From NCBI GenBank assembly GCA_973895155.1, contig OZ316897.1, positions 17,404,058 through 17,468,057 on the forward strand: 64,000 bases of DNA, written 5' to 3'. Both the position numbers and the translations under genes were made by a program. This document shows positions 1 through 50,429 of the stretch, in pieces. Under the pieces are notes generated by a model that worked only from the letters and a program-made list of their open reading frames with translations, was not told the DNA's origin and searched no databases. Source of the stretch: Marsupella aquatica (lineage: Eukaryota; Plantae; Marchantiophyta). How positions within the stretch are numbered: the first letter of the stretch is position 1; each line of letters starts with the position of its first letter.

Positions 1-630
1 CTTATCTGCCAACCATTGCTCATCTATGTCAGGCCCATTGCGAAATGCATCCTTGATTTGGTTGATGACCCTCTTTCGCTCTGCCTTCTCAATCTTCCCC
101 CACTGCATGCCTCGTGAGAAATTGCTTGTGATAATTTGCTTGATTGTGCTCTTAGCCCCTGCATATGCTAGCTCAGTTGGAGTCCCACTCGTCTCCAAGG
201 CAATGAATGGAAGTTTTTCTCTTGCTTCCTCTTTCTGACGTTGCTCCTCCCTCTGTTTTTGAATTGAATCTCTCTCCTCTCTTCTCTTCTGCTTCTCTAG
301 GGCTTGAGGAGAGGCAACTCCCGACTTAGTTCTTTCCTCTCTCTTCCTTTTTTTCTCTCTAGCCTTCTCTTCAGCTGCGGCCCTCTCCTCCCCCTCTCTA
401 GTAGCTTGTCCTGCTACAATCCCAGTTTGCAAAACCTGTCCAAGAATGGCACTCAAAGAGGCAAGCCCTGCTGGAGAATTGAGATTCACTTCTCCCAATT
501 GTGCAGCACTGAGATGTTGGGCCACTAAGTCTGCCCAGGCATTCTTCTCTTTCTCTGGATTTCCCCCATTGCCACTACCACTACCACTACCACTACCACC
601 TTGCCCTCCACTCCCCTCACCGGTAGCCAT
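1..630 (-). CDS. TnpA-like (CACTA accessory) protein, N-terminal part, runs off window edge
   Basis: Manual translation from ATG at 630 gives 210 codons with no stop: MATGEGSGGQGGSG...coiled K/E/R tract...LPFIALETSGTPTELAYAGAKSTIKQIITSNFSRGMQWGKIEKAERKRVINQIKDAFRNGPDIDEQWLADK. Architecture resembles the TnpA-like ORF at 25475. Absent from the ORF track because it has no stop in the window. Confidence 0.55.
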   Translation of the reverse strand, partial: MATGEGSGGQGGSGSGSGSGNGGNPEKEKNAWADLVAQHLSAAQLGEVNLNSPAGLASLSAILGQVLQTGIVAGQATREGEERAAAEEKAREKKRKREERTKSGVASPQALEKQKRREERDSIQKQREEQRQKEEAREKLPFIALETSGTPTELAYAGAKSTIKQIITSNFSRGMQWGKIEKAERKRVINQIKDAFRNGPDIDEQWLADK

Positions 631-1059
631 AGCTCCCCTCTCTCACAGTCTCCCTCGTACTGTTGCGCGCGCCCCGGCCCTTCTCGTCTCGCTCAAAAAC
701 TGAAATGAGCCCGAATGCGAGCTCCCGCCGATGTTTACGCCGTTCAAAAACGGGTTTGCGATGACATACGCATGGGAAACTGCGAAGCCCGCGCCCTCGC
801 AAATAGTCTCGCAACTTGCGAGGCACTTCCGAATCTATTCCCTTCGCAAAGCCATCGCAACCCGCAGAAGACCCAAAAAATTGTTCTCGGCCTCTGTTTT
901 TGCGAAGCAAGTGCGAAGGTCGTAGGTTCGCAAAAATATTCTCTAACTTGTGAAATAATTTGCGAGGCAGGTCTTATTGGTTTAGGGTTGGAAAACACTT
1001 TGGGGTGTCAAACGGCTATTAAGGTTTGTCAAACGACATTTAAGGTATGTTAAGTGCCC

Positions 1060-1920
1060 ATAAGTTAACATGGAAGGGGTGTCAATGGATGTTTGGGTTG
1101 TAAGGATAACTAGAATATAAGTTAACAAAGGTTTGGGTTTAATTAAAGGTTAGGTTTATATTTGGTTTTAATCTAGGAGTATTTGGTTTAATTAAGGGGG
1201 TTAAAACTTGGGTTAGGTTGGAATAAAAGGGTTGGGTTTAAATTAATGGGTTTGGCTTAGGGTTCAAGGTAGAGGTTTGCATTAGGTTGTGAGTAATTAC
1301 AGGGGTTGGGTTTGGTTTTAGTTGAGGGGTTGAATTGTGGTTGTTTTTTAAAGGGATTGGGTTTGGTTTTTAGTTGGGGGGTTTAATTGTGGTTTTTTTA
1401 AAGGGGTTGGGTTTCTAATGTAAGTGTTTGGGTTGGGGTGTAACATGATATAGGGTTGGATTTGGTTCTAATTGAGGGGGTACAATTTTTGCTTAAGTTT
1501 TAAAAAAGGGCCTCAATTTAGGGGTTAGGGTGAAGTTTAGAATAACTATAGGGGTGGGGGTTGGCCTATATAGGTAAAGTAAGGTGTAGATAGGGTAAGA
1601 GTTTTATATGTAATTGGGGGATTTGGGTTGGGTTTAGGGTAAAGGTTTGAAATTTTAATGAGGGATTTGGGTATTGGTTAGGATAAGGGTAAGGGTTTAG
1701 GGTGCTTGAGGGATTTGGGTTAGGTTTTAATGAAGGGTTTCATTTCATGGTTTGGGTTTAGGGTAGGGGTTTGGGTTTAGGGTAAAGGTTTGAATTTTTA
1801 ATGAGGGATTTGGGTATTGGTTAGGATAAGGGTAAGGGTTTAGGGTGATTGAGGGATTTGGGTTAGGTTTTAATGAAGGGTTTCATTTAATGGTTTGGGT
1901 TTAGGGTAGGGTTTGGGTTA
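1060..1920 (+). repeat. G/T-rich degenerate telomere-like (TTTAGGG/GGGTT) tract including a ~142-bp tandem duplication (~1628-1769 and ~1770-1911)
   Basis: Many GGGTTTAGGG/TTAGGG motifs with strong strand asymmetry; two near-identical adjacent copies. Confidence 0.8.
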
Positions 1921-2351
1921 CTTATATTTCTTTGTCTATCTCATTAACATGGAGAGGAAAACTCTTTGGCGTTGTAGGGCACTTCCCCATGTTTTTTAAA
2001 GTTTTGGCTAATGCATGATAATGCCTTGCGAGAGCCCGGGCATCTGAAAGGTATAACATTTTCTCATGCATTTCTAGTCATTGCTGTAAATATGGAGGGT
2101 TACAATCTATCATCCTTTTTTTCTGGTTCACCATAAGGCATGGCTTAATTCATTGTATATTGGCAGATTTTCCCCTCCTTCCAGATTTGGTTCATGAAAT
2201 TTGAGCCACAAGATCCGTCAAGGCATTGCTAAGCCCGGGTCTCATAAAGGTATTTTTCTGTCAATTCTTTTTAATATGTTTAGGTAGGGATTATCAATGA
2301 TGGTTTTGGTGAAGTTTTTACTAATCGCCTTCCAATTGCTATACTTGTCAG

Positions 2352-2585
2352 ATGTCTTCATCCTCTACAACTTCCACCACATCAGATTCCTCTTCCGATG
2401 AAGAAAGTCATCCTCCTCCTCAACCTGAACCAACCGTACGTCGACCTAGTGGTCCACCACGCCAACTTTGTGGTTGTAAAAAATGTGTGGGGATGGTTGT
2501 CCAAAAGTCATATGTATGTGCGGAGCACATTGCTCGATATGGCCAACATCGAGGTCTTACACCGGGAGCTTCTTCATCCCGTATG
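2352..2585 (+). CDS. First coding exon of element-1 transposase unit (transposase-associated Cys/His domain)
   Basis: ATG immediately after a TGTCAG acceptor. CGCKKC...VCAEHIARYG matches the CPCxxC...HL N-terminal motif of TnpD (compare MRCPCTQC...HLHLLRH at ~21000). Phase-0 GTGAGT donor at 2586. Confidence 0.6.
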
Positions 2586-3095
2586 GTGAGTTGTAAACTT
2601 ACTATGATTTCCATTTTATTTTGTAAATCTTGCTAGGTAGCATAAAATAAAATTTGGGAGGTTCATCACACTCACTTGGTTCCATTTCTTCCTATAGGTA
2701 TCCAGTAGGCCTACACCCACTACACCAACACCCTATGTTCCCTCACAAGGAGTTCTAGATGCTATAGGCTCGGCACTTTCACAAGCTTTTCGTTTAGTGG
2801 CAGCAGGGCAAGGTAGTGTTAGGACAATTAAGGGTGACGGTATTGTTACAAGCCCGGGGTCCTCACTTCTTTTCTTCCTACCCATCACGCGCGAATAAGT
2901 ATAGGGTTTTTTAATTGGGTTTAGTGAAATACTTTTAAATTTTTGTTGAAGAACATTAGGGTTATTTTAATCCAATTTTGAGAATTCTAAAAATCATAGG
3001 GTTTTTTTAAATCAAATTTGGGAATATTCTTAGAATATTCCATTAAATTAGGGGTAAAAAAATTCCTAAAAAAACTTTATTGACTTAACTTTTAG

Positions 3096-3827
3096 GGTGT
3101 TTATTCCCCCAAAACTTCGCGCGTGATATGGGACACCCCTTGGATTGAGGCCCCCGAGGTTACAAGAGGGAAAAAAAAGTCAAAAAGACAGCCTAGAGGG
3201 GAAGTGGATCAGTACACTTGTAGGGTTGATGGTAGATGGGGCCCTTGTACCTTCACAGGGAAGTGTGTTCCTATCATAAAGGATTGGAATCCGGAGTGCC
3301 TTGGTTTGCCATGTGATATAACCTATGGTGAGGAGATAGAAGTTTGGGGAAGACGTTGGGTTGTCAAGAGTTCGACCCTAGGGGAGAGGCATGGGTATGG
3401 GATTTTCTCTTGTCAGGACATTATTGTGGATGATATGGGTGGAAAAGGGCGCTCTTCAGATGGACCAACGTTGTTCCCGTATGGTGGACCCATTTACAAG
3501 AGGAGACATTGGAACATGATCCTTGTTCAACACCCTGAGTGGAAGACTTATGCATTGGACATGGATACTTTTGATGGTTGCACCAGAAAGTATTGTGACC
3601 AGCGTATAATTGATGGTGATCCCATCCGTAGTGGGAATATTGCCGGTTTCATCAACAATACTGTGGGGACCCGGCCTAAGCGTAGGAAAAACTGTGAATG
3701 GGTTTTTGTTGATGGTCCCCCTCCAGCCCCTTATGGGCAGAGATATCATCATGACCATTGTCTAGTTGTAGCTAATAGGACCATTCTGGTTGGAGAGGAG
3801 TTGTTTACACATTATGAATGGGATTAG
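3096..3827 (+). CDS. SET-domain protein (putative lysine methyltransferase) carried by CACTA element 1
   Basis: SET motifs in order: VKSS..G..HGYGIF (GxG), LFPYGG, GNIAGFINNT (RFINHS-like), LVVANRTILVGEELFTHY (ELxxDY). ORF track 3123-3827; in-frame TTTTAG acceptor at 3095. Confidence 0.8.
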   Translation, partial: GVYSPKTSRVIWDTPWIEAPEVTRGKKKSKRQPRGEVDQYTCRVDGRWGPCTFTGKCVPIIKDWNPECLGLPCDITYGEEIEVWGRRWVVKSSTLGERHGYGIFSCQDIIVDDMGGKGRSSDGPTLFPYGGPIYKRRHWNMILVQHPEWKTYALDMDTFDGCTRKYCDQRIIDGDPIRSGNIAGFINNTVGTRPKRRKNCEWVFVDGPPPAPYGQRYHHDHCLVVANRTILVGEELFTHYEWD

Positions 3828-3977
3828 GATTACTTTAGGGACACGTATTATACGTTCATCGTATGTGAACGTATGTTTTATAATGACATGTTCTTTTTAT
3901 ATTGTTAATAATATGTTTCGAGCACTACTATATTTGGCGTTAATTTCATTGTGAATACTTTATTGTATTTTCTATAG

Positions 3978-6900
3978 AATGTGCGGCCTAGTCAAGATAT
4001 GTTGCCAAGGAGGTTGAGAGCTACATATCAAGAAATGGGCTTGCCACAAGACGGGGAAACATCATCAGCAGATTCCTCATCAAGTGACAATGATAATGAC
4101 AGTCCAGATGAAGGGGCACCTCGGACAGATTATGAGGTCATGCAAGACCAAGAGTCAGCCATGGATGACTTCATGACAGATTGGTTTGGTGTAGACATTG
4201 GTGGTGAAGGAGGTGTCCCACCCAATGAAGGAGACCCTCCACCAAATGTTGCACATGATCCAAGGCCTCAACGTACACCTGAAGGACAAAAACAATGGGA
4301 AGAAGCTGAGGCACATGCTAGAACACCTATTTATGGGGGTGCTCGTTTGAATAGACTATCTGCCATCTTGGCATTGATGAATCTTCAGGCAAAACACAAG
4401 GCAAGCAATGCGCTACTATCGGATTTGTTTGCAATTTGCCATGATCTCTTGTTACCTAGTGAAAATGTGTTGCCAGGAACTTGGAAGGAGGCAAAGAGGG
4501 TTCTATCATCCATTGGCATGGAATACCATATCATTCATGCTTGTGTGAATGACTGCATTCTCTATCATGAGACCAATGCCAGCGCAACTGAGTGTCCAAT
4601 TTGTCAAGAGCCTCGATATGAAACCAACATGTTGACCTCAAAGGTGCCTAGAAAAGCTGTTCGTTGGTTTCCTATTATTCCTCGATTGTTGCACATGTAC
4701 CGATGTTCTGACTTGGCAGAATTGATGGTATGGCATAAGACACATCGATCAGAGGCCGGTGTCATGCGGTTGCCAGTTGATTCCCCTGCTCACAAGCATG
4801 TGGAGTCACAATGGCCAGAATTTGCACGTGACCCTCGTCATGTGAGGTTGGGGTTGGCATCAAATGGGGTAAGCCCACACTCCCTTGGAGGGAAAGGGCG
4901 CCCTACTTCGGTTTGGCCGGTGGTTGTTATGAATTACAACCTTCCCCCATGGTTGTCCATGAAAAAGGGATTCTTATTGCTATCATTGATTATCCCAGGT
5001 CCATCTAAGGTAAAAAACATGGACACCTACTTGGCGCTCTTGGTTGGGGAACTCCATAAATTATGGGGGGGTGTATGGGCATATGATGGTCGGACAACTA
5101 CAGGAGGGTTACCACGTGTCTTCCAATTGAAGGGAATCATTATGTGGACCATGCATGACTATCCAGGTGAGTGGTATGGATTTGTATTTTTTTCATGTAT
5201 TGGAGATCAAGTTTGTTTGGAAGGAAGTCCCTCTTTAATTCTATGTACATGAACTTTTCAATTCCTTTGACTCTAATTGAGAATGTTATTTTGTGAGCAG
5301 GGTTTGGGTTTGTTTCTGGGTTCCAAACTCAAGGGTACAAGGCATGCTCCACTTGTGGTCCAAGCCTTCACGATATGGCCAAGTACTCAAAATGGCTGCA
5401 CAAGATAATCTACCTTGGTCATACCAAGTTTCTTCCACTTGGGCATCACATGAGGTCTGACCCCCTTTTGTTTTCAGACTTTGACATGATCAATGGTGAT
5501 GAGCGTGAGATACCTGACCGCACAACATTTTCATATTGGAAGTCCATAGCTGATAGGGTGGCAGACCCTGAAGATGCCATGGGATTTGATGGTAGTGGAT
5601 TGACAAGGTGGGGTATACTGGCCACTTTTCCCTATTGGCCTGAGTTGAAGATTCATCACTTGTTAGACCCCATGCATATAGAGGGAAATGTTGGGAAGGC
5701 TTTGATCAAGCACTTTTATGGGGAAAAGAACATTAATTTTAGGGAGGCATGCCAGGATCTAGAACGACATCCAGATGTATGGATAACAGTTGATGAATCC
5801 ACAAGGATGGAACATCGTCCTTCAGCTCCATGGGTTTTGAGTGTTGGTGAAAGAAGAGAGTTTCGACAACGCATAGGGCAGATGCGGTTTCCTACAGGCT
5901 ATGGTGCCAATCTACGTAAGGCTTTTGGGATGGAGGACAGTCATAAATGGCCAATGTATCTCAAGACACATGACTATCATCGTTTACTACAACATATACT
6001 TCCTGTGGCAATCATAGGTTTGGGGAGTGAAGAAGTGCAAGACGCCCTTTGGTCACTGGGCACTTTGTTGAGATGGATATGCTCAAAGGAAATATATGAA
6101 GAAGAGATACCACGGATGGAGGTATTGGCAGCAGAGGTGGTATGCAAGTTGGAGAAGGCCCTCCCTCCTTCCTTCTTTGATTGTCAGGTGCATCTTCTCG
6201 TTCATCTTGTGAGGGAGGTTGCCATTGCCGGTCCGGTGCATTGTAGGTGGATGTATTGGCTGGAAAGGTATATGGCCGTGTTAAAGGCTTATGTACGGAA
6301 CCGTGCATGAGTGGAGGGGAGCATGGCAACTGGATACTTGGCAGCTGAGAGTATGTTTTATTGTAGTAACATCTTAGCTACCATTGATCCTAGTTTTCCA
6401 CGCACTTGGATGGAAGAGAGGGAAGTGGAGGAGGACCGTTTAACAGGTGCAAAAAAAACACGCTTACTAACCGCAGTGGAGCTGACACAGGTTAGTACTT
6501 TCATGTTGAGTAACAGCAATGTGATGGAAGATTGGAGAGAGTTTTATGAGGATGCAAAGAGGGAGAGTCGTCGCCCAAGGATCTTTCCAAAGTTCCTTGA
6601 GTATATGAAGGAGAAAGTACTTCAGTTGGATGCTATGGTGGCCCAAGGTGAGAATGTATCACATTTTCCAGATATGACTCATGAGGTTCGAACAATTGTT
6701 CATGGTCCTTTAAGACTTGTTCAAACCAGAACAGCAATGTGGACATAAGGGAGGCATTTCAGGATTTCTGACCTTGATGAGAAGAGGGGAAGAACTTTTG
6801 ATTGTGGAGTTCAAGGGCAGTTCATGCAAGATTCACAAAGTAGCCGTCATGACACTAATGTGATCAGAGATGTGGTGCCTCACTATGGGAAGATTGAGGA

Positions 6901-7246
6901 GATCTTGATCATATCCTATGATGCCGATTCCAAATTTGAAGAGTATGTCTTCAAGTGTAAGTGGTTCAAAATTCACCTGGTTGGTGATAATCGCACGGTA
7001 CTTCTTGATGAGTGTGGGTTTACTCGACTGAAGACATCAGCAACTAGCTTTCAACCATCTCATTGGCAAACGTCTGAACCATTTACATTCCCAAGTCACC
7101 TTGAGCAGTGTTTCTATATTCCGTACCCACCAGACCTAGAGTGGTCAGTTGTTATACCGTATGTGCCACGGTCCCGTTCCATTATCTCGGAAAAACCTGA
7201 CGTTATTATTGTGTCAAATGGAGGCGAGGATGAGGACCAGGTTTGA
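3978..7246 (+). pseudogene. CACTA TnpD transposase pseudogene (Transposase_21/DUF4218/DUF4216-type regions)
   Basis: Motifs IHACVNDC, WFPIIPRL, WPVVVMNYNLPPW, HDYPG, LDPMHIEGNV, KTHDYH, FFDCQVHLLVHL, WMYWLERY. Intron 5167-5300 is phase-compatible. In-frame stops at 6308-6310 (TGA) and 6746-6748 (TAA). LASNG where intact TnpD has LxxDG. Confidence 0.9.
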
Positions 7247-17056: not shown

Positions 17057-17725
17057 AGGACCACTTGTCACACCACATGCACAAACCAGAGACCATTGAC
17101 CTATAACTTAACACTTTGACTTGAACAGAGAGGATATTTACTTAAGATTTTGAATTATGACCAATTTTGGGTCCAGGGTTTAGGGTCAACAGTACATAAC
17201 TTATCCTATTATGGCTGCACTAAGTACAATATCCTAATTTAAGAGGCTAGCAAGCTCACTTAAAAGTCTCCTTTCAAAGACTGGAATTAATGGGCCATGT
17301 GATAACCTGGAAAAAGTGATTTATGCCTAACTTATTTGTCTCATTCACTATCATAGCCTATTTAGGATGTATAAATTACAACCCTGATCACACTGCTTGA
17401 TACCAATCCTGTTCAAAAAATGCCTGTTTTACATGTCACGACTGTTATATGTGATTCAAATGCATTAAATCTTGTTGCAGATCTCCTTTGGTGAATCATA
17501 GCCACAAAATTGAGGTGTAGGTGGAGCTATTGTACGAGGGGATCAGTTTTTAGTGTGGGCTCAACAAACCAAAAAGTATGTCTACTCTGCACATGTGTGT
17601 GAACATTTCATTGCAGTAGCAATTGCCACTCTAGTCTATATGCTACACTGTACTTTTTGTACACTGCACTAAATTGTATTGTCTGTGCACTCTGCTAAAT
17701 TGTACTATCTGTCTCATGCGTAGGC

Positions 17726-18406
17726 ATGGCACGCCCTAAAATCCGAGCCAAGAAGCGGGGGACAGAGGTGAGCAACACAGGTGTAGTTGGGCCAGATGGT
17801 AGTAACTTCTCCGCAAGTCAGATTTTCCAGAAGGCAGCTCATTGTTGTGCCATTTGTGACGATGGTGGTGACTTAGCCATATGTGAGGGCCCTTGCATGA
17901 GGCATTTCCACCTCAACCCGGAGTCTGACCTTGCTGCAGAAAACAACTGTCCAGGGGTGGGCCTCCCGTCAGCACACCAAGGAGGCTGGATGTGCACTGA
18001 TTGTTTGGAGAAGCAGGCTAAGTGTGCACAGTGTGGGAAGTTGGGGTCTTATGAGGGCTCTGTTGATGCTCCACCACTTGTTAGGAAATGCCCTGACAGA
18101 TATTGTGTGAGGTTCTTTTGTTTTTCATGTTTGCCCGATCTTGCCACAGCTTGCCCACTTCATAAGTGCAAGGCATGTGGTCAGCACGATGAAGATTTCT
18201 GGGTGGACATAGTCCACTGTGTTAGGTGTCCCACCATGTGGCACTTTCATTGTTTGAAGGAGCGTCAAGCAGAAGGCTATGCTTGTGACAGACACATCTA
18301 TGATCACTCTGCACATGGTGTTGATCGATGGATCTTCTATTGTCATCGCCATGCCATAGATCCTACTTTGCACACTCCCATGAGAGATCACATTTCTTGG
18401 CTTTGA
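17726..18406 (+). CDS. Stand-alone EDM2/NSD-type composite PHD-finger protein (TE cargo)
   Basis: CAICDDGGDLAICEGPCMRHFH...C..C...CAQCGKLGS...CPLHKCKAC...HCVRCPTMWHFHCL...IFYCHRHAIDPTLHTPMRDHISW follows the recalled EDM2 PHD region (CAICDNGG..CCEG.C.RSFH...CPLHKC..C...CRRCP..YH..CL...IYC..HEID..L.TP.RDH). Basic N-terminus RPKIRAKKR. Acceptor AG at 17722-17723. Confidence 0.85.
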   Translation: MARPKIRAKKRGTEVSNTGVVGPDGSNFSASQIFQKAAHCCAICDDGGDLAICEGPCMRHFHLNPESDLAAENNCPGVGLPSAHQGGWMCTDCLEKQAKCAQCGKLGSYEGSVDAPPLVRKCPDRYCVRFFCFSCLPDLATACPLHKCKACGQHDEDFWVDIVHCVRCPTMWHFHCLKERQAEGYACDRHIYDHSAHGVDRWIFYCHRHAIDPTLHTPMRDHISWL

Positions 18407-19006
18407 ACCTGAATAATGTACATGCATAGTGCACCTGATGTGGATACCTTGGAGATTGCAGACATTCCAATTTTGAGAAGAAGGACCTCTGTAGGAGAGG
18501 ATGCTTAGGCAACAAGTACCCTAAGTTCATTACTTGTTCCTGGGTACATGCCTTCAAAATCTCCCCTTAAGCCTTCTAGGAACTTTTTTAACTCTGCAAT
18601 CATTTTGATCACGACTTACATGACACTGCTTAAATTAAATCAGGACTTCTCATTATGAGCATATAAGTTACAAGGCTATTTAATTTGCGAGAATTCCCTT
18701 AAAGTGTACCAACATTTTGTATTCTCATTGAATGTCTGCCCCCATACGAAACATCTGTATGTGGCATCACAAAACAATTGCACTTGTCACCTTCAATATT
18801 GTGAAGGCACATATTCAAACTATGAAGTGCATGCTTGCAGGTGTCTAGTACGTTTGTCCCAATATTTCTCCCGTTTGGAATCGGAGCAGAGACTCACCAG
18901 ACGACTGGACTGGACCAAGTTATAAACGCAGCATTTTAAGGGCCCTCCGATTATCAGGTGAACGCATTATCTTCCGGTCTGCAGTGATTAGGTGGCCCGT
19001 GTGTAC

Positions 19007-19855
19007 ATGGCCTCTAGGAAACGTACAAATGTTGACCACCCGCCTTTGTTGGCTGGAATCAAAGCCATTTTGATTCCTGGCCACTATGGGTTCACCCAAG
19101 TGAGTTGGCCAATCGTACAAAAACGATTCTCAGAGTTCCATGGGACTGAAGTCAAGGACATCACTCCACAGACTACACATGTTGTTGCGGGGACATGGCT
19201 GGATGTGATGAACAAGTGGTCATGGTCCTTCATTGATTCTGCGATTACCAACCAAGGTCTAAAAGTAGTTGAAGTCTCTTGGCTGACCGATTCTGTTAAA
19301 CATAGGTGTGTACAGAGTACTGAGCAATATGAGTTGTGGGAGAGTGAGGAGGCCACTGCAGAGGCTTTGGCTGAAAAGGAAGCCTATGAAGCAGCGGCAG
19401 AGAAACCCAACTTTGCTTCTGTCCAATATGGACCTGTTGTCAACATAGGACACCATCCTATGCGTGCAGATGCTATATTGAATGAGCATGGCAAGGAGAG
19501 AAATACCATTATGAAGGGGTTCAGTGTGGTATTTGCAGAAGAAGGAATTGGGGAGACTAAGTGCAGACTGTACAAGTCTATAGTTGTTGAGCTAGGTGGG
19601 ACAGTGGAGGAGAGTCTAACAGAAACCTCCACTCATGTTGTAGGTCTGTCATACATGAAAATATGCAGAAAATTCTTTAAGACAACAGTGCGTGATTTTG
19701 TCATGAACAACAATCTTTGGGTGCTTTCCCCTGATTGGCTTCTGGAATCAGCAGCTAGAGGGAAGCGACAGAATGCTTGGGACTTTGATATTTTTGAGGC
19801 CTGGCCCTCCAAGATTCAGCGGAGATGTATGCTTAGCAAAGGTGGGAGAGAGTGA
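19007..19855 (+). CDS. Tandem BRCT-domain protein (TE cargo)
   Basis: Two BRCT repeats: ...HGTEVKDITPQTTHVVA...VVEVSWLTDSVK...EQYEL and ...LGGTVEESLTETSTHVVG...VLSPDWLLESAARGKRQN. First ATG 19007 (ORF track from 18992). Confidence 0.85.
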   Translation: MASRKRTNVDHPPLLAGIKAILIPGHYGFTQVSWPIVQKRFSEFHGTEVKDITPQTTHVVAGTWLDVMNKWSWSFIDSAITNQGLKVVEVSWLTDSVKHRCVQSTEQYELWESEEATAEALAEKEAYEAAAEKPNFASVQYGPVVNIGHHPMRADAILNEHGKERNTIMKGFSVVFAEEGIGETKCRLYKSIVVELGGTVEESLTETSTHVVGLSYMKICRKFFKTTVRDFVMNNNLWVLSPDWLLESAARGKRQNAWDFDIFEAWPSKIQRRCMLSKGGRE

Positions 19856-20565: not shown

Positions 20566-20891
20566 TAAGATGAGGACATCTCACACCGGTCTCGCACCTG
20601 GCACCTGTGTCTATGACTATACATGATTGGACTCTGATATGGTCATGGATGTACGTGCAGAGGCAGTACATGTGAGGACAGCGGAGGAGTTGACATCCTC
20701 AAACATTTAGGAATTTTGTCTCATTCACTTGAGAATAGGTACATGACTCAGGCACCTATATTTTTTGTTTTTTTGTTTTTTTGGAACGTTACGTATTTTG
20801 GCAAGTACAGTCGGGGGTGAAATCCTTAACAGGAAGTGTATTTTTCACTTGCATAATAAAATGACAGGGTGCTGAGTGCGTGTGTATAGTG

Positions 20892-23800
20892 ATGGCTCCA
20901 AGGTTGCCTCTTCACAACCCATTTAGGATTAGGCATCATGATTCTAAATTGTGGATGCGTGAACAAGCCCGGGCCGCCCAAGGTAGGAGTAGGAGGATGA
21001 GATGCCCATGCACACAGTGCCAAGGATTCAAGTCATTGAGTTTGAACACTGTGCACCTTCACCTGCTGCGGCATGAAAGGCACCCTCGGTGGAGGGTTTG
21101 GAATGTACCAGCAGAAGAAGACTCCTCTGATGAAGAGTGGAGAGCTGACTTTGTGGATTCTAATACAGCTAGGCGTAGAGACTACGTAGAGCAGGACATA
21201 GACTGTGCAGAGGATGGTCCTGGGGTCCAACATGAGAACGTGGATGACCAAGATGGAGATGCAGAGGCAGTCACTGAGGACGGTGGGATGGATGTCCCAA
21301 GAATGGTTCAAGAGATTTTTGAAGACCTTGATGCTTTTTACGACACAGTGGAATCAGAAGAGGACAATGAACCGCAGCCACACATTGGCGACGGCCAAGC
21401 TGAACCTGACTTTGACATTGGGGAAGGTGCAGCAGAGAGGGAGTGGGTGTTTGGGGGCCCAAAACACATCAAAGAAGCTTGCATTCCTATCTACGAGGGG
21501 TCGAACTGCTCCAAGCTGGGTTTTGTCGTGTTGTTGTTGAACATCTGTGGCAATCACAATGTTCCCAATATATTTGTGACAGAGTTGTTGACCTTCCTGC
21601 GCCGAAATGTGTTACCAGATGGTAATTCAATTCCAAAAAATATGTACGAGGCTAGGAAATTGATGTCTAACCTTGGGCTGAACTATGTGTCTATTGACGC
21701 ATGCCCTGATGGGTGTGTTCTCTTTCGCAAAGAGCATGCAGATAAATTGACATGCCCTCATTGTGGTAAGCACAGGTACAAGAATGTAGGGAAATGTACA
21801 CACCCTGCCAAGGTTCTTCGTCATTTTCCTCTCATTCCTAGACTACAACGTCTGTTTAGATGCCCTGCCATTTCCAAGCTGATGACATGGACTCCTGATA
21901 ACAAGAGCAGTGATGGCCTGCAGCGTCACATTGGAGATTCCAACCATTGGAAATTTGTTGATGAGAGGTGGCCACAGTTTGCTGCAGAGAAGCGGAACTT
22001 TCGATTTGGTCTATCACTGGATGGAGTAAACCCATTTGGAGACAAAAACAACCGTTATTCATGTTGGCCGGTTACGCTGCTAAATTACAACCTTCCCCCA
22101 TGGATGACTACAAAGAGGTTTTTTGTCATGATGGTGCTGTTAATCCCTGGACCAGCTTCTGTGACCGAGCAATTCATAGATATCATGTTGGCTCCAGCAG
22201 TGGAAGAGTGGAAGACTTTGTGGATAGAAGGGGTGTTAACCCATGATGTTCTGAAGGGGCTTCTTCGACCCAGCCCCTTTAGACTGCATGCAATTTGTTT
22301 GCTGGATATAGCAGATTACCCAGGCTATGGCATCATATCTGGACGAGTGACAAAGGGCTATGTGGGGTGCACACCATGTGGGAAAAATGTGACAAGTGAG
22401 TGGTCGCATGCCCTGCACAGTATGAAATTTCAGGGGCATAGAAGGTATCTGCCTGTTGATCATCCTTACAGGCACACACGGTCTCAAATTGCACACTTCA
22501 ACAACAAAACAGAGCTTCGTGGCCCACCACAGAGGGTCACCAGAGAGCAAGTCCTGAGGTGGGCAGCCAGGAAGGCTGATTGGGACAAGAGAAGTGCCAC
22601 TGATCGAGAACCTGAGGATCCAGTGGTGAAACACGGTGTGAAAAGACAGACCTTGATGGACTTGGAGTTGGAGTACTGGAGGGTAATGTACTTAGCCTCC
22701 AGCCCCTGTATGATTGCAATTTTAGATTGGAGCAATGGTGGATTGATGTTGGTTACAATCCTCCTATGTGGTTAATTAGTGTTTCTGTTGTTGAATTCTT
22801 TGCTTTGTGGAGTGCAGGAATTCGAGCCCAGCAAACACAATGTGGACGTCATGCACATTGAGAAAAATATTTGTGAGAGCTTGCTGAAGTTCTTGTCGGG
22901 TGAGAAAGATACAGGAGCAGTTCGAGCTGATATGCAACAGAAGGGGATTCGCCCTCACCTTTGGTTGAAGCCCCATGCAAGCAATCCCAATGTACTTCTC
23001 AAGTTCCAAGCTCCCTATGTGTGCACACAGGATGAATGGAAGACATTCTTGTATAGATTGAGCTGTCTGAAAGTGCCCTCTGGCTATGCTGGTGCCTTCA
23101 AGAAGCATATTACAAAGAATAAACTTGGCAGTATGAAAACACATGACTACCATGTGTTGATGCAGCACATTCTGCCCCTATGCCTCAGAGGTCTCATGCA
23201 GAAACCAGTCCATAATGTCATTCTTCGACTGTGCAATGTATTTCGCCGTATATGTGTGAAAGTGTGGGATCCCCAAGGATTGGAGCAGTTGAAGCAGGAT
23301 GCTGCTTATGTCCTCTGTGACTTGGAGATATACTTCCCCCCTGCTTTCTTTGATGTTATGACTCATCTCCTAATCCATGTGGTAGAAGAGCTAGGGCAGT
23401 ATGGGCCAGTCAGTACCAGATGGATGTACCCTATGGAGCGATACATGAAGTTGTTGAAAGGTCATGTGAGAACATACTACAGGCCAGAGGCTTCCATGGC
23501 ATTGGGGTACATTAAGGATGAGACGTTGGGATTCCTAACAGAGTACATGGCTGGGTCTGGTGAAGCTATGACAAGAGTTTGGAAATCTGGTGAAGATGAT
23601 GGAGTGAGTGGCGAGGTTGTTGAAGGTGTGGGACGTGCTGTTCAGCTGCCTGTTGCGATTCGAGACAAGGCTCATTCATATGTGCTGGCAAACACAGAGC
23701 CTATGCAACCATGGTGGAGGTGAGTGATTGAATTGACTTGCCTTTGTTGTGATGCTTCTTGTCTGTTCCAAGGGTGATCTTAGGTTGTCATGTGTTGTTT

Positions 23801-24592
23801 AGACCTAACTATGCCTGTACCTCATATTGCAGGGAATATGATATGCAAAAAGCTGCACACTCTGGGCAGCAGGATCCCTTCCCACAGTTCGAGCAGTGGA
23901 TTCGGGTGACAATTCGAGAGCATAGTAGACATCACCCAGATATGGAGAAGGATTTGTATCTTCTATCTGTGCCACCACGATTGTCTATTCTGACCTACAA
24001 ACGGATGAGAGCTTATGGAAATCATTATCGAGTGAGGGATGAGCAGGGTGACCATTGTGTATCATATGATTGTGGTTTGATTTCTGTGTTTGAGCAGAGA
24101 ACCTCTGAAGAACAGAGGGGGTGGATGAAGATGGGTTACGTGGGGGAGTTGACCGACATTTGGGTGTTGAATTATGGTAACACAAGTGTCCCAGTGATAT
24201 TGATGAAGGGATCATGGGTGAAATCAGAGTGGCAGAGACCAAGGGCCACCATGAAGCGTGATCATGATGGGTTCTTGTTGGCCAATTTTAGGTCCAGAGT
24301 ACCAGAATGGTCTGAGCCTTTTGTTTTCCCTAGCCAAGTTGAACAGGCTTTCTTTGTAGATGTGGAGGAGTCACATGGCTGGAGGGTGGTATGCCATAGC
24401 CAAGCACGGAACAGGCGGATGGATGGAAGTAAAGTAGAGTTCAGTTTGGATGACCATGCTGCATTCGAGCATCCTAGTCATGAGACTGTACTTCCAACTC
24501 GGGCAGGGACTGACTACATCCCCTTAACATTGAGAGAGACATATGATGAACCTGGGCAAATGGAATATGATGAGGTTGATGATTTGCAATAG
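20892..24592 (+). CDS. CACTA TnpD transposase, apparently intact; exons 20892-22682, 22818-23719, 23833-24592 (~1150 aa)
   Basis: CPCxxC N-domain, IDACPDGC, LSLDGVNPF, NYNLPPW, ADYPGYG, DVMHIEKN, KTHDYH, FFDVMTHLLIH, WMYPMERY, EPFVFPSQVEQAFFV. Both GT-AG introns join in frame. Confidence 0.95.
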
Positions 24593-30869: not shown

Positions 30870-33800
30870 ATAGCCTCCAAGTGCTAATAGTTTTCAGGAC
30901 TCTAAAATCAGAGTAAGGACAAGAGGCTCGAGATGATCTAAAGCCTCCATGCACTTCAATTTTTTGCACTCTAAAACCAAAGTCAAGACAAGAAGCTCGA
31001 GATGAGCTAGAGCCTCCAAGCGCTTTCAATTTTCAGCACTCTAAAACCAAAGTTAGGACAAGAGGCTTGAGATGATCAAGAGCCTTCAGGCGCTTCAATT
31101 TCCACAGTCTAAAACCAAAGTCACGACAAGCTAAGAGTCTCAATGCAAGACTATCTAGAGCCTCCAAGCACTTGAAGTTTTTGGACTCTAAAACATAAGT
31201 CAAGACAAGAGACTCGAGATGATCTAGAGCCTTAGACTGTTTCAATTTTTTGCACTTTAAAACCAAAGTCAAGACAAGAGGCTCTATACAATCTAGAGCC
31301 TCCAATCGCTTCAATTTTATGCACTCTCACACTAAAGTCAAGACAAGAGGCTCAAGATGATCTAGAGCCTCGGTCCAAGTGCTTTAATTTTGTGAAGTCT
31401 AAAACCAAAGGCAGGACAAGAGGCTCGAGATGATCTAGAGCCTCCAAACGCTTTAATTTCTACACTCTAAAACCAAAGTCAAGATAAAAGGCTTGAGATG
31501 ATCTAGAGCCTTCGAGCGCTTCAATTTTTTGCACTCTAAAACCAAACTTAGGACAAGAGGTTTCAAATGATCTAGAGCCTCCAAGCGCTTCAATTTTCTG
31601 CACTCTAAAACCAAAGTCAGGCCAAGAGGCTCGAGATGATCTAGAGCCTCCCAGAAGTTTTCTACACTGTAAAACCAAACTAAGGACAAGAGGCTCGAGA
31701 TGATCTAGAGAGCCTCCAAGCGCTTCAATTTTCCTTGGAATGGTAGCCATTTTATAAATTTCAGTTCCCCCGCGAAAAGCCCCACGGGGAGGGCGCACAA
31801 ACAAATCATATTCACGGGAGACAGCCAAGATAGAACAGAGGACCAAACCTCAAAAAATCACCTCAATCCCACATCAGGCAAGGAATTAACCTCCCCGGCA
31901 ATACCTAACAGCAAAAGAGGACAACCACACAACCTAATAACCAACCATAGGGCATCCCTGCCCCCAGAACCATACATTCATCGGTCTCAACGTTCCAACC
32001 TCACAGCAAAATCAGAGTCATCTAGCGGAAGTGAAACTGGTCCCCCCACCGCCGAGCCAGCTCCTGCGAAGTCCATCAATACATGATTTGGCCCGTAGCA
32101 GGCGAGTGCACTTCCTACCCGGGGTGGGCAACGCCGACCAGCAGCGAATAAGTTCTCCACTGCCTCCGACGGGACAAGTCCCAGGTCAAACACACGTCTC
32201 CCCCCCGTCTGAAACATGTGAGTGTTTCTCCCAATCTAGAGCCTCCAGAGAATCTGGTGTAAGACAAAAAATTGCGCCACTCCCACAGGCTCCCTCCCAC
32301 AGGCTGCATCTAAAAGCGCTTCAATTTTGTGCACTCTAAAACCAAAGTCAGCACAAGAGGCTTGAGATGATCTAGAGACTCTGAGTGCTTGAAATTTTTG
32401 GACTCTAAAACCAAAGTCAAGACAAGAGGCTCAAGATGATCTAGATCCTTCGAGGACTTTAATTTTTTGCACTCTAAAACTAAATTCAGGACAAGAGTCT
32501 CGAGATGATCTAGAGACTCTGAGCATTTCAATTTTGTGCACTTTCAAACCAAAGGCAGGACAAGAGGCTCAAGATGATCTAGAGCCTCAGAGTAGTTTAA
32601 TTTTCTGCACTCTAAAACCAAAGTCGAGACAAGAGGCTTGAGATGATCTAGAGCCTATGAGGGCTTCAATTTTCTGCACTCGAAAACCAAAGTCAAGACA
32701 AGAGGCTTAAGATGATCTTGAGTCTCCAAGCAGTTTTCAACATTGTAAAACAAAACTAAGGACAAAAGGCTCAAGATGATCTAGAGCCTCCGAGCGCTTC
32801 AACTTTTTGCACTCTAAAACCAAAGTCAGGACAAGAGGCTCGAGATGATCTAGAGCCTCCAAGAAGTTTTCTACACTAGAAAACCAAACTAAGGACAAGA
32901 GGCTTGAGATGATCTGAGCCTCCAAGAAGTTTTCTACACTGTAAACCAAAGTCAGGACAAGAGGCTCAAGATGATCTAGAGCCTCCGAGCGCTTCAATTT
33001 TCTGCACCCTAAACCCAAAGTCAGGACAAGAGGCTCGAGATGATCTAGAGCCTCCAAGAAGTTTTCTACACTATAAAACCAAACTAAGGACAAGAGGCTC
33101 GAGATGATCTAGAGCCTTCGAGCAATTCAATTTTCTGCACCCTAAAACCAAAGTTAGGACAAGAGGCTCGAGATGATCTAGAGCCTCCAAAAAGTTTTCT
33201 ACACTGTAAAACAAAGCTAAGGACAAGAGGCTTGAGATGATCTGAGCCTCCAAGAAGTTTTCTACACTGTAAACCAAAGTCAAGACAAGAGGCTCAAGAT
33301 GATCTAGAGCCTCCGAGCGCTTCAATTTTCTGCACCCTAAACCCAAAGTCAGGACAAGAGGCTCGAGATGATCTAGAGCCTCCAAGAAGTTTTCTACACT
33401 ATAAAACCAAACTAAGGACAAGAGGCTCGAGATGATCTAGAGCCTTCGAGCGATTCAATTTTCTGCACCCTAAAACCAAAGTTAGGACAAGAGGCTCGAG
33501 ATGATCTAGAGCCTCCAAAAAGTTTTCTACACTGTAAAACAAAGCTAAGGACAAGAGGCTTGAGATGATCTAGAACCTCCAAGAAGTTTTCTGCATTGTA
33601 AAACCAAACTAAGGACAAGAAGCTTGAGATGATCTAGAGAGCCTCCAAGCGCTTCAATTTTGTGCACTCTAAAACCAAAGTCAGGACAAGAGGCTCGAGA
33701 TGATCTAGAGCCTCCAAGCGCTTCAATTTCTGCACCCTAAAATCAAAGTTAGGACAAGAGGCTCAAGATGATCTAGAGCCTCCAAGAAGTTTTCTACGCT

Positions 33801-34465
33801 GTAAAACAAAACTAAGGACAAGAGGCTCGAGATGATCTAGAGCTTCCAAGCGCTTCAATTTTCTGCACCCTAAAACCAAAGTTAGGACAAGAGGCTCGAG
33901 ATGATCTAGAGCCTCCAAGAAGTTTTCTACACTGTAAAACAAAACTAAGGACAAGAGGCTCGAGATGATCTAGAGCCTCCAAGAAATTTTCTACATTGTA
34001 AAACCAAACTAAGGACAAGAGGCTCAAGATGATCTAGAGAGCCTCCAAGCACTTCAATTTTGTGCACTCTAAAACCAAAATCAAGACAAGAGGCTCGAGA
34101 TGATCTAGAGCCTCCGAGCACTTTAATTTTCTGCACTCTAAAATAAAAGGCAGAACAAGAGGCTGAAGGTGATCTAGAGCCTTCAAGTGCTTCAATTTTC
34201 TACATTATAAAAGCAAAGTCAAGACAAGAGGCTTGAGATGATCTAGAGTCTTCAAGCACTTCAATTTTCTACCCTATGAAACCAAAGTCAAGACAAGAGG
34301 CTCGAGATGATCTAGAGCCTCCAAGCGCTTCAATTTTTGCACTCTTAAACCAAAATCAAGACATGCAAGAGGCTCGAGATAATCTAGAGCCTCCAAGTGC
34401 TTCAATATTCTACACTATAAAACCAAAGTCAAGACAAGAAGCTCAAGATGATCTAGAGTCTCCTA
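30870..34465. repeat. Satellite array of ~69-bp and ~59-bp units built on the palindrome GAGGCTCGAGATGATCTAGAGCCTC; interrupted at ~31735-32310
   Basis: Dozens of copies of ACAAGAGGCTCGAGATGATCTAGAGCCTCC with two alternating linker types. Confidence 0.95.
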
Positions 34466-35304
34466 GTGCTCCGAGTGGACATCGCAACAAGCAATTGATG
34501 GATGACACATGGTCGATCATGAGTGGTGACAACTGATTCGACTCCGATCTTGACCCTATAGTCTAGCACTAAAACCATGTGGCTACCATATTGATCTCGA
34601 GGCTAGCCCACAGATCTCGACCCAAGCTAAAACTAAGATCTTGAGGCTAGCACATAGATCTCGACCCAAGCTAAAACTAAGATCTAGAGGCTACAACCAA
34701 GATCTCAAAGCAAGAGCAAGAAGCGAGGAGCTCTTGCAAGAAAGAGGATAAAAGGCAAATGAGGAATTCAAATCTCCTCAACGCACTATATGTCATGTCC
34801 AAAGGTAGCACTAGGTAGATACAAGTATGAGAGAGGCATAAGTGTGTCAGGTATGATAAAGCATTTAATGCAACCCGTATGCCCTTGGTGTGCAGTTAAA
34901 GCAATCCGTACACAAATCCGTACGCAGATTGTTGGGCCCTCTCGTGAGTCAGTCGGTGGCATATAATCCTTTGTTCCCAGTTGCAAGGATCATTTTACTA
35001 GTTTCATTTTTGTTGTCATGTTGTTCTCTGGTCCTCTTGCTCTTCCTCTCGCTCTCCCTCTCTCCAAGTCTCTTGAGCTCCTCGCTAATATTTCTATTGG
35101 TCTGAGCTTTGGTTAAGGATAGATCAGGCCAGGTTTTGGGGCAGAGAACCCTAAACCCATAACCCTACCAATTTCTGTAGCAATTATCTAGTTTACCTCT
35201 AGCTAGATAATCTAGAGCCAAGAGTTTATTGTAGCTTTGGCAAGGGTTTGTTTAGGGTGAGGGATGCATTCGTAGTGATCTTTGTGGTAGTTAGAGTCCC
35301 CATT

Positions 35305-36850
35305 TTACTTCGAGATCATCTAGAGCCAACAATTGTGTAAGCTTTGGATACATATTTCTTGATAGTGAAACATCTTCACAGCGGTTTCCTTGGAAGCTTA
35401 GGGACCTTTATTTTGCCTAGAGATCATCTAGAGCCAACAATTGTGTAAGCTTTGGATACATATTTCTTGATAGTGAAACATCTTCACAGCGGTTTCCTTG
35501 GAAGCTTAGGGACCTTTATTTTGCCTCGAGATCATCTAGAGCCAACAATTGTGTAAACTTTGGATACATATTTCTTGAGAGTGAAGCATCTTCACAACCG
35601 TTTCCTTGGAAGTTTAGAGGCCTTTATTTTACCTCGAGATCATCTAGAGCCAACAATTGTGTAAGCTTTGGATACATATTTCTTGACAGTGAAGCATCTT
35701 CACAACCATTTCCTTGGAAGTTTAGAGACCATTATTTTACCTCGAGATCATCTAGAGCCAACAATTGTGTAAGCTTTGGATACATATTTCTTGATAGTGA
35801 AGCATCTTCAGAGCAGTTTCCTTGGAAATTTAGTGGCCTTGATTTTACCTCGAGATGATCTAGAGCCAACAATTGTGTAAGCTTTTCATTGGGTCTCTTG
35901 ATGATTAGAAATTGCTACAATGATTTTTTGAGGCAATTACAAGTCTCAATTTTCCCTCAAGATCAACTATAGCTAACAACTTATTTTACATTTGTGTAAG
36001 GATTTAGTGATAGTTGAGAATCTTTAGAATGATTTCCTTGGTTATTGAGGATCACTATTTCCTCAAGATCATCTAGAGCCAACAATTGTTGTCTCTTTGG
36101 GTAGGTACTTTTGTGAGGAGAAGAGGTTCGTTGGTCATTGATGGAGAGTTAAGGTTGCCTCTAGGATGGTGCAATTTTGGAGTTGACGTTGCCTTTGGGA
36201 TGGTGCAATTTTGGCTAGTGATAGTGATAGTTGTATTTGAAAACTAGCGAGACGTGGAGCCGTAGAGCCCCAAATATTTGGTCCAGCCACTGCACCCACT
36301 AGTATCGATGTTGATGGCCAACACTACGTAAGGAGTATATGGAAACTAGGAAGATTTGGAGCTCCAAATTTGGTGCATAGCTTCAAGTAGAGTTCACCCA
36401 TCCCATTGCTATTCCTTCTCCCACACATGTACGTATTTCTTGATAGTGAAGCATCTTCACAACCATTTCCTTGGAAGCTTAGAGGCCTTTATTTTACCTC
36501 GAGATCATCTAGAGCCAACAATTGTGTAAGCTTTGGATATATATTTCTTGAGAGTGAAGCATCTTTAGAGCAGTTTCCTTGGAAATTTAGGGGCCTTGAG
36601 TTTACCTCAAGATCATCTAGAGCCAACAATTGTGTAAGCTTTTCATTGGGGTCTCTTGATGATTTTTGAGAAATTGCTATATAATGATTTTTTGAGGCAA
36701 TCACAAGTCTCAATTTTCCTTCAAGATCAACTATAGCTAACAACTTATTTTACATTTGTGTAAGGGTTTAGTGATAGTTGAGAATCTTTAGAATGATTTC
36801 CTTGGTTATTGAGGATCACTATTTTACCTCAAGATCATCTAGAGCCAACA
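35305..36850. repeat. ~108-bp tandem array with core CTCGAGATCATCTAGAGCCAACAATTG; part of a ~770-bp segmental duplication (~35660-36425 / ~36430-37190)
   Basis: Repeated unit visible at 35309, 35417, 35525, 35633, 35741, 35849 and again from ~36498. Confidence 0.9.
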
Positions 36851-48335: not shown

Positions 48336-50429
48336 GTTGGTCCTTCAATTGGTTTGTCAGTGTCCTTGGAGCCAAGTCTTATTCATTAAAATGTGAGCTA
48401 TTTCCTCTCAAAGCTACCTCTGATCAGTGTGTAATACTTCAAAAAACAAAGAAACCTCCATCAGGAAACCCTGAAAATCTGTCGAAACAGATGGTTTTGC
48501 TAATTCAGTATGACGAGGATAAGTAAAACAAAATGAATAAAAACATTATCTCGGACCTAGAAATGGACAAGCAAATAACATTCCGGTAATAGGTAGAGAG
48601 AGTGGGAGGAAATTATCATTTAATCAAAGAAGCGCAAAAAGCACTATTCTCTAAAATAGTGAATGTTTTTAACTGTCTACCGAGGTTCAATAAGGGCACC
48701 TCGGTATTGGAGGAAGCACCCAATGAACTCAAAATTAAAGATGTGTGAATGCATCTAACTTGGTCCAAACTTAGATTATGGAAACTGCCCTCTCAATTGT
48801 CACTCTGAAATTTCGTGACAAGGAAGGGGAAGAGACCTGGCCTTTTCGTGACTATATTTATTGTAAGATTTGGCTTCATTCAAATTTTGTAATGACATAC
48901 AATTAGTTGTAGTTGTTCATCCTTAAGTTAAGATTTGAATTAAGCTTAGTTGCTAACAATGCCACTCACTGGAAGAATTCCAGCCCAGGGTCCTCAATTA
49001 CTTTTTCCCAACCAGTCAAACTCAAATAGATATAAAGTATTGGTTTTAGGGGAATACTTACCGGTTTTGTAAAAAATTGATAAGGGTTTGAAAATCAAAC
49101 TTTTTGGCATTGCAAAAATATAGAATCTAAAGCCCGGGGTGAACAGAGACATCTGCCCATCCCCATGAACTGCATAAAGCAATCTCTGCTTTACATGACT
49201 GAAAAAGAAAAAGGAACAGGCGGATCGCGCGAATGGCAGTTAACTACTTGACTACCTTTTGGAGAAAATAGTAAAAACTTCAAAACATGTTTTCTTAAAA
49301 AGGACTCTGTTTAGTGTAATGTTAAACATATGGCTTAGTTAACAGCGTTGCTTGGAGAAGAATGCTTCTTTGTCTTGAAGTTAAAATCTTAATTCAATTG
49401 AAGGAAGCAAAGTGCATCAAAGCGTGATCAAAAACATTTGCCACACTCCATTGCTCAATATCATGGATCTGAGGCCGCAGCTGGAGTTAATTGTCAAGTC
49501 GTCGCGAACTGACGTAGCACAGTTTAGGAATGTGCATGATGTCTACAACTTACTTTACAGGGACATGAAAGTTGTAACTATTGGGACATGAACTACATAG
49601 ATTCAATGAACGAACGAAACACGTGCCGTATGAATTCATGGATTGAATCGATAGTTTAAAATTCGGAGCCAATTCTTATTGAAAGTAGGCAGCAACAAGA
49701 GGGCCAAACATAGCAACATCAAATTATTAGCTTGAATTCCAAACTTTTGGCGGGCTCGCCGATCATGTTTCGGACAAGTCCGACCGACAGGTTTGAAGCA
49801 AGAGAATTTGTTCTTTGTTGATTGAAATTTTGAGGACTTGCAGTGGGAGCGATGGAGTTGGAGGCGGAGGGTCCAGTCTACAATCCAGAAAGCGATTCGA
49901 TAGTCCAACTACAACCCACAAAGCATTCAACAGTCCAACTGCAATCGAGAAAGGAACAAAACAGCAGCACGGGCCCGTTGTAATGCCAATGACGTCACTG
50001 CTATGACATATTAGACATGTTTCCACTCACGGCCCCGATGACTTCCTGGAATGCGAGATATCCTTAAACAGAAATTTCTGTTAAGAACCCTGGAATGCGA
50101 GATATCCTTGAACAGATTTTCTGTTAAGAACCACTCTCAGAACTTTAGAGTGCAGTAGACATAATCCACCCTGTAGTGCTAGTTTGCATTGAATTTTGTT
50201 GTAGACCTCAACTTTCTTGAGTGGAATCTACAAGGCCAGTCAATTTTCTCTCCAAGTACGTAGTAAACTTATCGATTGTACCGTCCTTCCTCATATATGG
50301 CTGAGATCCCATCTTCTTCCCAGGCCGTTTCCAAAGTGCTTCCTCTACATCCTCAATCAACTTTAAATCCTATGGCTGCAGTCTCAAATCGAAACTTGTC
50401 TCAACTTGTTCTGGCCGTCTTATAAATAA

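Follow-up and report, generated by a model that had tools for sequence, protein, structure and literature searches.

What is a SET domain doing inside the transposase gene of a plant transposon? The question arises near the left end of a 64,000-nucleotide stretch of the genome of the liverwort Marsupella aquatica (GenBank assembly GCA_973895155.1, contig OZ316897.1, positions 17,404,058 to 17,468,057 of the forward strand; hereafter, the window), where an open reading frame (ORF) with SET motifs lies between the first exon and the body of a TnpD-type transposase gene of a CACTA element. A first-pass annotation of this DNA had proposed that one promoter could produce either a protein with a zinc (Zn) motif and a SET domain, or the transposase. 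Our analysis suggests that this is a bryophyte CACTA element, present here as a decayed copy, with a conserved SET exon nested in its transposase gene, that exon 1 would be spliced either to the SET exon or to the TnpD body, and that the SET product is a predicted lysine methyltransferase. We put the probability of this reading at roughly 0.6. The exon map on which it stands differs in important respects from the one first drawn.

Is the ORF really a SET domain? The frame at 3096–3827 on the forward strand has 243 codons with no stop within, and no ATG occurs in it ahead of residue 111. It matches the Pfam SET family PF00856 with an E-value of 2.8e-5 and a score of 24.9 bits (cut-off 22.4) over residues 140–240, corresponding to nt 3513–3815. 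Among 28 family proteins scanned against Pfam, 20 have a SET match at E≤0.01, and half of those 20 score at or above the cut-off. A phmmer search with the single SET ORF found no match at E≤10 among the sequences of the PDB, and a profile of the family matched LegAS4 there over the whole domain (E 5.7e-6). A structure predicted from 32 close homologues had a predicted local distance difference test score (pLDDT) of only 37.9, and was replaced by an AlphaFold model built from a diverse alignment of 71 family sequences (pLDDT 89.8; predicted template-modelling score, pTM, 0.84). A Foldseek search with this model gave 297 PDB matches at E≤0.001, the top ones being MLL1, SET8, LegAS4, ATXR5 and G9a. 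In VIA-align comparisons the Z-scores were 11.0–12.3, with root-mean-square deviations of 2.2–3.3 Å over 117–135 residues, and 50 of the 50 entries listed were SET methyltransferases. The structural match spans model residues from about 24 to 222, or nt 3228 to 3824 approximately. The ORF is thus predicted to fold as a SET domain; the model is a confident one and matches SET methyltransferases only.

The motifs listed in the first-pass annotation are all visible in the window: a GxG motif and terminal tyrosine that are kept, INNT in place of INHS, and no post-SET region. The SAM-binding GxG motif is GYG, within GERHGYGIF, and both of its glycines are nearly invariant in the 71-row alignment. 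The YxG-type motif is likewise kept, and G79, G81, P107, G110 and Y113 are each conserved in at least 90% of rows. The asparagine of the N-H-S/C motif is present in 62 of the 71 rows, including that of the window. The C-terminal ELxxxY motif reads ELFTHY, and its catalytic tyrosine is found in 54 of the 60 rows without a gap at that position. Two features weigh against a prediction of catalytic activity. The histidine of the N-H-S/C motif is replaced throughout the alignment, by serine in 66 of the 71 rows, by asparagine in four (among them FINNT in the window) and by arginine in one. In addition, the protein ends three residues past the tyrosine, leaving no room for a post-SET region.

These two features, together with the marginal Pfam scores of the family (17–36 bits), raise the alternative that the SET domain is catalytically dead and has a binding or regulatory role instead, such as competing with TnpD by way of the N-terminus common to both, or binding histone tails. 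We regard this as unlikely. The other SAM-binding and catalytic positions, namely the GxG motif, the asparagine and the tyrosine, are all kept under purifying selection. Furthermore, LegAS4, the closest relative by sequence among solved structures, carries phenylalanine at the position of the N-H-S histidine (YINFS in our alignment), so this histidine is not universal among solved SET proteins. LegAS4 has been crystallised with a histone H3 peptide (8swi), and we take it to be an active histone methyltransferase. Lysine methyltransferase activity of the bryophyte SET protein is plausible.

How is the SET domain joined to the rest of the transcription unit? Exon 1 (2352–2585, forward strand) begins with an ATG and encodes a serine-rich, acidic N-terminus followed by a CxCxxC...H motif. 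It closes, as first annotated, in a phase-0 donor, ATG/GTGAGT (here and below, a slash marks a junction). Exon 1 resembles the Transposase-associated family of Pfam (Transpos_assoc) weakly, with an E-value of 0.0086 that falls under the cut-off. The same exon stands at the head of the gene models P0001, P0004, P0064, P0031 and P0037 of related proteins, and its counterpart in L001, a genomic metagenome contig (65% identity), is at 650–883. L001 was the sole true relative in our metagenome scan; two further contigs (L002 and L003) matched weakly, at 25–36% identity over short stretches, and were not used.

The earlier proposal that exon 1 is joined to the SET ORF at an acceptor at 3095, through a 2585-to-3096 junction, does not agree with the relatives. 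In Sphagnum, in Calypogeia and in L001, exon 1 leads into a single exon that corresponds to window positions 2698–3827. The junction in P0001, ...GASSSRM/VSSRP..., is equivalent to 2585/2698 in the window, and L001 has an intron (884–994) at the same place as window 2586–2697, which starts with GT and ends with tatAG. Gene models of 343–359 aa from Sphagnum and Calypogeia fissa read exon 1, then GASSSRM/VSSRP and PYVPSQ, then a variable basic linker, and then SET. Models with this exon 1–SET structure include P0001 (351 aa), P0004 (343 aa), P0064 (359 aa) and models of 343 aa from S. fallax. In L001, linker and SET lie in one uninterrupted exon (995–1783). The conserved junction is thus 2585-to-2698, which takes in a linker of 50–90 residues that had been taken for intron, as had window 2698–2852, and the SET exon begins at 2698. 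The acceptor at 3095 and the first 21 codons of the annotated ORF lie instead within a 314-bp segment that we read as foreign to the exon.

This segment, 2853–3166, splits the SET exon of the window into two parts, and we read it as an insertion resembling a miniature inverted-repeat transposable element (MITE), consisting of 306 bp plus the second copy of an 8-bp target duplication, GTTACAAG. Part A of the exon (2698–2852, forward strand) aligns to the homologues and contains the conserved PYVPSQGVLDAIG stretch and the beginning of the variable linker. Part B (3167–3827, forward strand) encodes a basic linker (RGKKKSKRQPRG) and a conserved N-terminal subdomain, followed by the SET domain, and ends in the TAG stop codon at 3825–3827. 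The claim that the SET ORF is uninterrupted thus holds for the SET domain, but not for the exon to which it belongs.

Six observations lead us to read the segment as an insertion. First, the direct repeat GTTACAAG flanks it, at 2845–2852 and 3159–3166; since 4% of window positions have an identical 8-mer at such a spacing by chance, the repeat would be weak evidence if it stood alone. Second, its ends form imperfect terminal inverted repeats (TIRs) of about 45 nt, the termini being CCCGGGGTCCTCA and CTCGGGGGCCTCA, which match at 11 of the 13 terminal nt and again at 12 of 12 further in. Third, the segment, which has a G+C content of 35%, folds as a hairpin at the DNA level (z-score −4.9). Fourth, the frame that enters from 2698 runs into a stop at 2896–2898, within the segment, and removal of the 314 bp restores one open frame over 2698–3827. 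Fifth, the segment is missing from L001 and from every aligned protein homologue. Sixth, the 13-nt terminus occurs four times in the window, as compared to 0.15 occurrences expected. No second full copy of the insertion was found.

Two of the occurrences of the terminus, at 48984–48996 on the forward strand and 55719–55731 on the reverse strand, face inwards with 6.7 kb between them. Over its first 84 nt, the sequence from 48982 is 69% similar to the insertion; a matching 8-bp duplication is absent. These termini possibly delimit a larger relative of the insertion, or they are two separate ends.

How widespread is the SET exon, and has it been maintained? Close homologues of the SET protein number 39, at 56–79% identity, and come from Calypogeia fissa and species of Sphagnum. 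Copies are numerous: clusters contain 360, 226, 168 and 112 members, located on many chromosomes in six Sphagnum species, and the clusters also take in members from C. fissa. Named distant members are from Riccia sorocarpa, and every member with a name is from a bryophyte. When 1.84 billion representatives were scanned in full, only 89 clusters matched at E≤0.001, and the family proteins scanned for domains carry at most SET and Transposase_21. The SET family thus forms a small, separate clade, and does not derive by simple copying from an ordinary host SET gene.

The position of the exon is conserved along with its sequence. L001 keeps the order seen in the window: exon 1, intron, SET exon, spacer, acceptor. 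In the gene models P0031 (Sphagnum jensenii), P0099, P0100 and P0298 (Riccia sorocarpa), the SET part runs into the TnpD body, and P0099 is collinear with the window by tblastn, its SET part aligning to 3252–3674 and its TnpD part to 4140–6391. We considered an independent insertion of the SET segment, with TIRs and a target-site duplication (TSD) belonging to it alone, and rejected this: no inverted repeats bounding the segment were found, and it occupies the same place in the Sphagnum, Calypogeia and Riccia relatives. The SET ORF is thus part of the transposase unit, as first annotated.

Comparison with related copies had been suggested as a check on the SET ORF, together with the ratio of nonsynonymous to synonymous substitution rates (dN/dS). 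The exon is present in the relatives, and dN/dS between the window and L001 is 0.10–0.22 over 195 codons of the SET part and 0.06–0.26 for exon 1, with dS at about 0.9–1.8, near saturation. At the level of the family, this comparison shows purifying selection on the SET exon.

Plant DNA transposons often capture host gene fragments, and the SET exon could in principle be such a passively acquired (Pack-type) passenger, functionless for the element and open by chance. The decayed state of the window copy is in keeping with this view. We nonetheless consider it very improbable, since the same exon is found at the same place in moss and liverwort copies whose proteins are 40–76% identical, with dN/dS of about 0.1–0.2, and since the family forms its own restricted clade.

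The window SET protein is 76% identical to the copy from Calypogeia, a liverwort, 58–79% identical to the other close homologues, which are mostly from the moss Sphagnum, and about 35–46% identical to copies from Riccia, which is again a liverwort. This pattern departs from the species tree, suggesting either that the element lineages are old or that horizontal transfer took place.

Downstream of the SET stop codon, an A+T-rich spacer (3828–3977, forward strand) leads to the acceptor of the TnpD body (...tatAG). We infer that the spacer serves as the 3ʹ untranslated region (UTR) of the SET mRNA and as the last part of the TnpD intron. The equivalent spacer of L001 is 220 nt long and ends in ...catag/AATATG, the counterpart of ...tatag/AATGTG at 3977/3978 in the window; the two spacers are otherwise poorly conserved (74 of 149 aligned bases). 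The TnpD body opens in phase 0 at 3978, directly after ...tatag, as the first-pass annotation had stated. Its first exon (3978–5166, forward strand), defined by Pfam and tblastn, encodes a Cys/His region and the N-terminal part of Transposase_21, and ends in a phase-1 donor. A phase-1 intron (5167–5300) separates it from the rest of TnpD (5301–7246, forward strand), which encodes the end of Transposase_21, DUF4218 and DUF4216. Pfam E-values for these three domains are 1.6e-37, 2.1e-24 and 4.4e-07, respectively, and tblastn shows the window TnpD to be collinear with plant TnpD proteins. Two nonsense codons interrupt the frame, at 6308–6310 and 6746–6748, also in agreement with the first description. 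The tblastn alignments of P0099, P0105 and P0107 read through the stop at 6308–6310, where these three proteins have proline. The copy in the window is therefore decayed in both genes: the SET exon is split, and TnpD has two stops.

Do the SET exon and the TnpD body share exon 1? The acceptors at 2697/2698 and 3977/3978 are both in phase 0, matching the phase-0 donor of exon 1. A second CACTA element in the window (20865–24589, forward strand), in which no SET was found, encodes a TnpD that is 31% identical to the first. In this second element, the Transposase-associated motif and Transposase_21 lie within one ORF, and the Zn motif is therefore normally the N-terminus of TnpD. A splice from exon 1 to 3978 would place the motif about 340 residues ahead of Transposase_21, as compared to about 310 in the second element. 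Together, the phase-0 acceptors and the usual location of the motif on TnpD argue for a single transcription unit.

The principal alternative is that there are two tandem genes with separate transcripts and no alternative splicing: a Zn-motif–SET gene with its own polyadenylation site in 3828–3977, and a TnpD gene that starts at the methionine at nt 3999 (MLPRRL). This methionine could start TnpD alone, and it is conserved between the window and two relatives: P0099 has it (..DIEMLPRRLQ), as does L001 at its end (AATATG). Moreover, no gene model that joins exon 1 directly to the TnpD body was found among the proteins read, and the similarity between exon 1 and TnpD N-termini is weak, with E-values of 0.063 and 5.4. 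Against this, the start of the TnpD ORF coincides exactly with a phase-0 AG, which L001 also has, and the residues NV, which lie directly after the acceptor at 3977 and upstream of the first methionine, recur in Riccia (P0099). In addition, only 150–220 nt separate the SET stop from the acceptor, leaving little room for a promoter, and a canonical TnpD has an N-terminal Transposase-associated motif, which here exon 1 alone supplies. We therefore consider two tandem genes to be somewhat unlikely.

Alternative splicing from a shared exon 1 remains the arrangement that we favour. The missing exon 1–TnpD model, the weak N-terminal similarity and the conserved methionine all count against it, as do five further points. 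First, in the window copy itself, the conserved SET product could be made only by unusual splicing that removes the insertion; GT at 2845 and AG at 3158 would excise it exactly, and the 2585-to-3096 junction is also in phase. Second, the proposed junctions derive from sequence and from the gene predictions of other annotators, which perhaps lack transcript support. Third, the fused models P0031, P0099 and P0100 exit the SET exon from an internal site. Fourth, a search with the SET query found no longer fused forms among 279 candidates, which is a point of little weight; the fused Riccia models surfaced through a TnpD query. Fifth, the CACTA termini of the element were not located: a motif scan of the window gave five matches as compared to 2.8 expected by chance, and the best 30-nt pairing reached 18 of 30 with no TSD, although the 5ʹ end may lie beyond the window.

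How might such a locus work? We propose that one promoter serves both products, through alternative splicing and polyadenylation, by analogy with TnpA and TnpD of En/Spm. Use of the SET exon as an alternative terminal exon, within the first intron of TnpD, would join it to exon 1 and yield a Zn-motif–SET protein of about 350 aa. A Riccia protein with the same combination of Zn motif and SET (P0252) is about 34% identical. Skipping of the SET exon would join exon 1 to the TnpD body, through a 2585-to-3978 junction, and yield TnpD. The basic linker may direct the SET protein to the nucleus, and the N-terminal Zn motif, being common to both products, would recruit the SET domain to the binding targets of the TnpD N-terminus. 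The element would in this way place marks on the chromatin that it occupies, or control how it transposes.

Several other features of the window are worth recording. A 214-aa open frame, Gly/Ser-rich and then Glu/Lys/Arg-rich, runs off the window at 1–642 on the reverse strand, divergent from the transposase unit; it has no Pfam match, and may or may not belong to the element. Between this frame and the transposase unit, 960–1920 consists of about 1 kb of degenerate plant-telomere-like repeats of the GGGTTTAGGGT type. Just upstream of the transposase of the second CACTA element, and on the same strand, lie an ORF at 17699–18403 that resembles NSD-type PHD fingers (E-values of 1e-5 to 5e-3, below the Pfam cut-offs) and an ORF at 18992–19852 with a BRCT match (E 6.5e-14). 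The ORFs of this region, 17699–19852, could be a host gene beside the second element or another chromatin-related CACTA accessory gene. Tandem-repeat arrays occupy 30889–34400 (units of about 69 nt), 35194–36750 (about 108 nt) and 43897–45800 (about 75 nt). A long ORF in the third array, at 44186–45634 on the reverse strand, has a weak Pfam match with no significant stretch, and is probably an artefact of the repeat.

What would a SET gene in a plant CACTA element mean? SET genes within DNA transposons are already known. The apparent novelty here lies in the hosts, in the setting of a plant TnpD gene, and in the nesting with a predicted shared first exon. Searches of the Creative Commons papers of PMC and of bioRxiv turned up no paper that describes a SET gene in a CACTA element of a bryophyte or other land plant. 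If our reading is correct, the Zn motif that the SET protein would share with the transposase suggests how it would be aimed. A more general hypothesis is that a land-plant CACTA lineage, maintained in mosses as well as liverworts, makes a histone lysine methyltransferase of its own, that the enzyme is delivered to the DNA of the element by the shared Zn module, and that its mark counters or tunes host silencing. Such an enzyme would be a transposon-borne plant “writer”, made from a transposase gene through the choice of an alternative terminal exon; we regard this as a speculative extension that is probably wrong in one or more of its parts. Of more immediate consequence, hundreds of bryophyte records named “SET domain-containing protein” are most likely transposon genes rather than host chromatin regulators. 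Sequenced Sphagnum genomes contain many copies of the family, and public RNA data are expected for these species; both splicing and enzyme activity are therefore open to ordinary experiments.

The closest precedent for the proposed gene organization is En/Spm, a CACTA element in which TnpA and TnpD are produced from one transcription unit by alternative splicing. The bryophyte element is likewise a CACTA element with a TnpD-type transposase (Transposase_21, DUF4218, DUF4216), and it appears, from reading phase and homologue models, to have a shared first coding exon with phase-compatible alternative acceptors. In contrast to En/Spm, the predicted second product is a SET-domain protein and not TnpA, a DNA-binding protein, and its exon is upstream of the TnpD body, in the first intron of TnpD. 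A different association of the same two domains is seen in SETMAR, a primate host gene in which a mariner transposase was captured as a fusion with a SET domain. In both cases, a SET domain and a DNA transposase are found within one transcription unit. However, it is the transposon that carries the SET domain in Marsupella, and SET and transposase are predicted to be alternative products and not a fusion.

For the SET domain itself, the best solved relative is LegAS4/RomA of Legionella (PDB 5czy, 8swi, 8sr6), with a Z-score of 11.7 and 25% identity in the structural comparison, and with the same absence of the N-H-S histidine. LegAS4/RomA differs in being a bacterial secreted effector with ankyrin repeats, and is about 21–25% identical; we claim no common origin.

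Accessory SET genes have been described in several other DNA transposons. In the red alga Bostrychia, they occur in Helitrons and HarbingerS, and as PAG2 of Plavaka elements (bioRxiv 10.1101/2025.02.11.637652); in Phytophthora, HarbingerS and MuDR elements carry them (Kojima and Jurka 2014, as cited in PMC12730594). PAG2 combines a DNA methylase domain with SET, and Plavaka is a branch of the EnSpm/CACTA superfamily. The bryophyte element resembles all of these in having a SET accessory ORF within a DNA transposon, in many copies and species. As described, the SET genes of HarbingerS, MuDR, Helitron and Plavaka elements are separate accessory genes, and their hosts are oomycetes, red algae and others. 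The bryophyte element, by contrast, has a land-plant host and a transposase of the plant TnpD type, and its SET exon lies within the transposase gene itself, whose first exon it is predicted to share.

For the possible effect on chromatin, the nearest comparison is VANC of VANDAL elements. Known anti-silencing functions of plant transposons are few, and VANC, a protein of a plant DNA transposon that lowers DNA methylation, is the example given (as cited in PMC12730594 and bioRxiv 10.1101/2025.02.11.637652). If our reading is correct, a SET gene under selection in a plant CACTA element would represent a second anti-silencing route, acting on histones. By analogy, the SET protein would be, like VANC, a factor through which a plant DNA transposon influences the state of its own chromatin. 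VANC differs in lacking a SET identity and in lowering DNA methylation.

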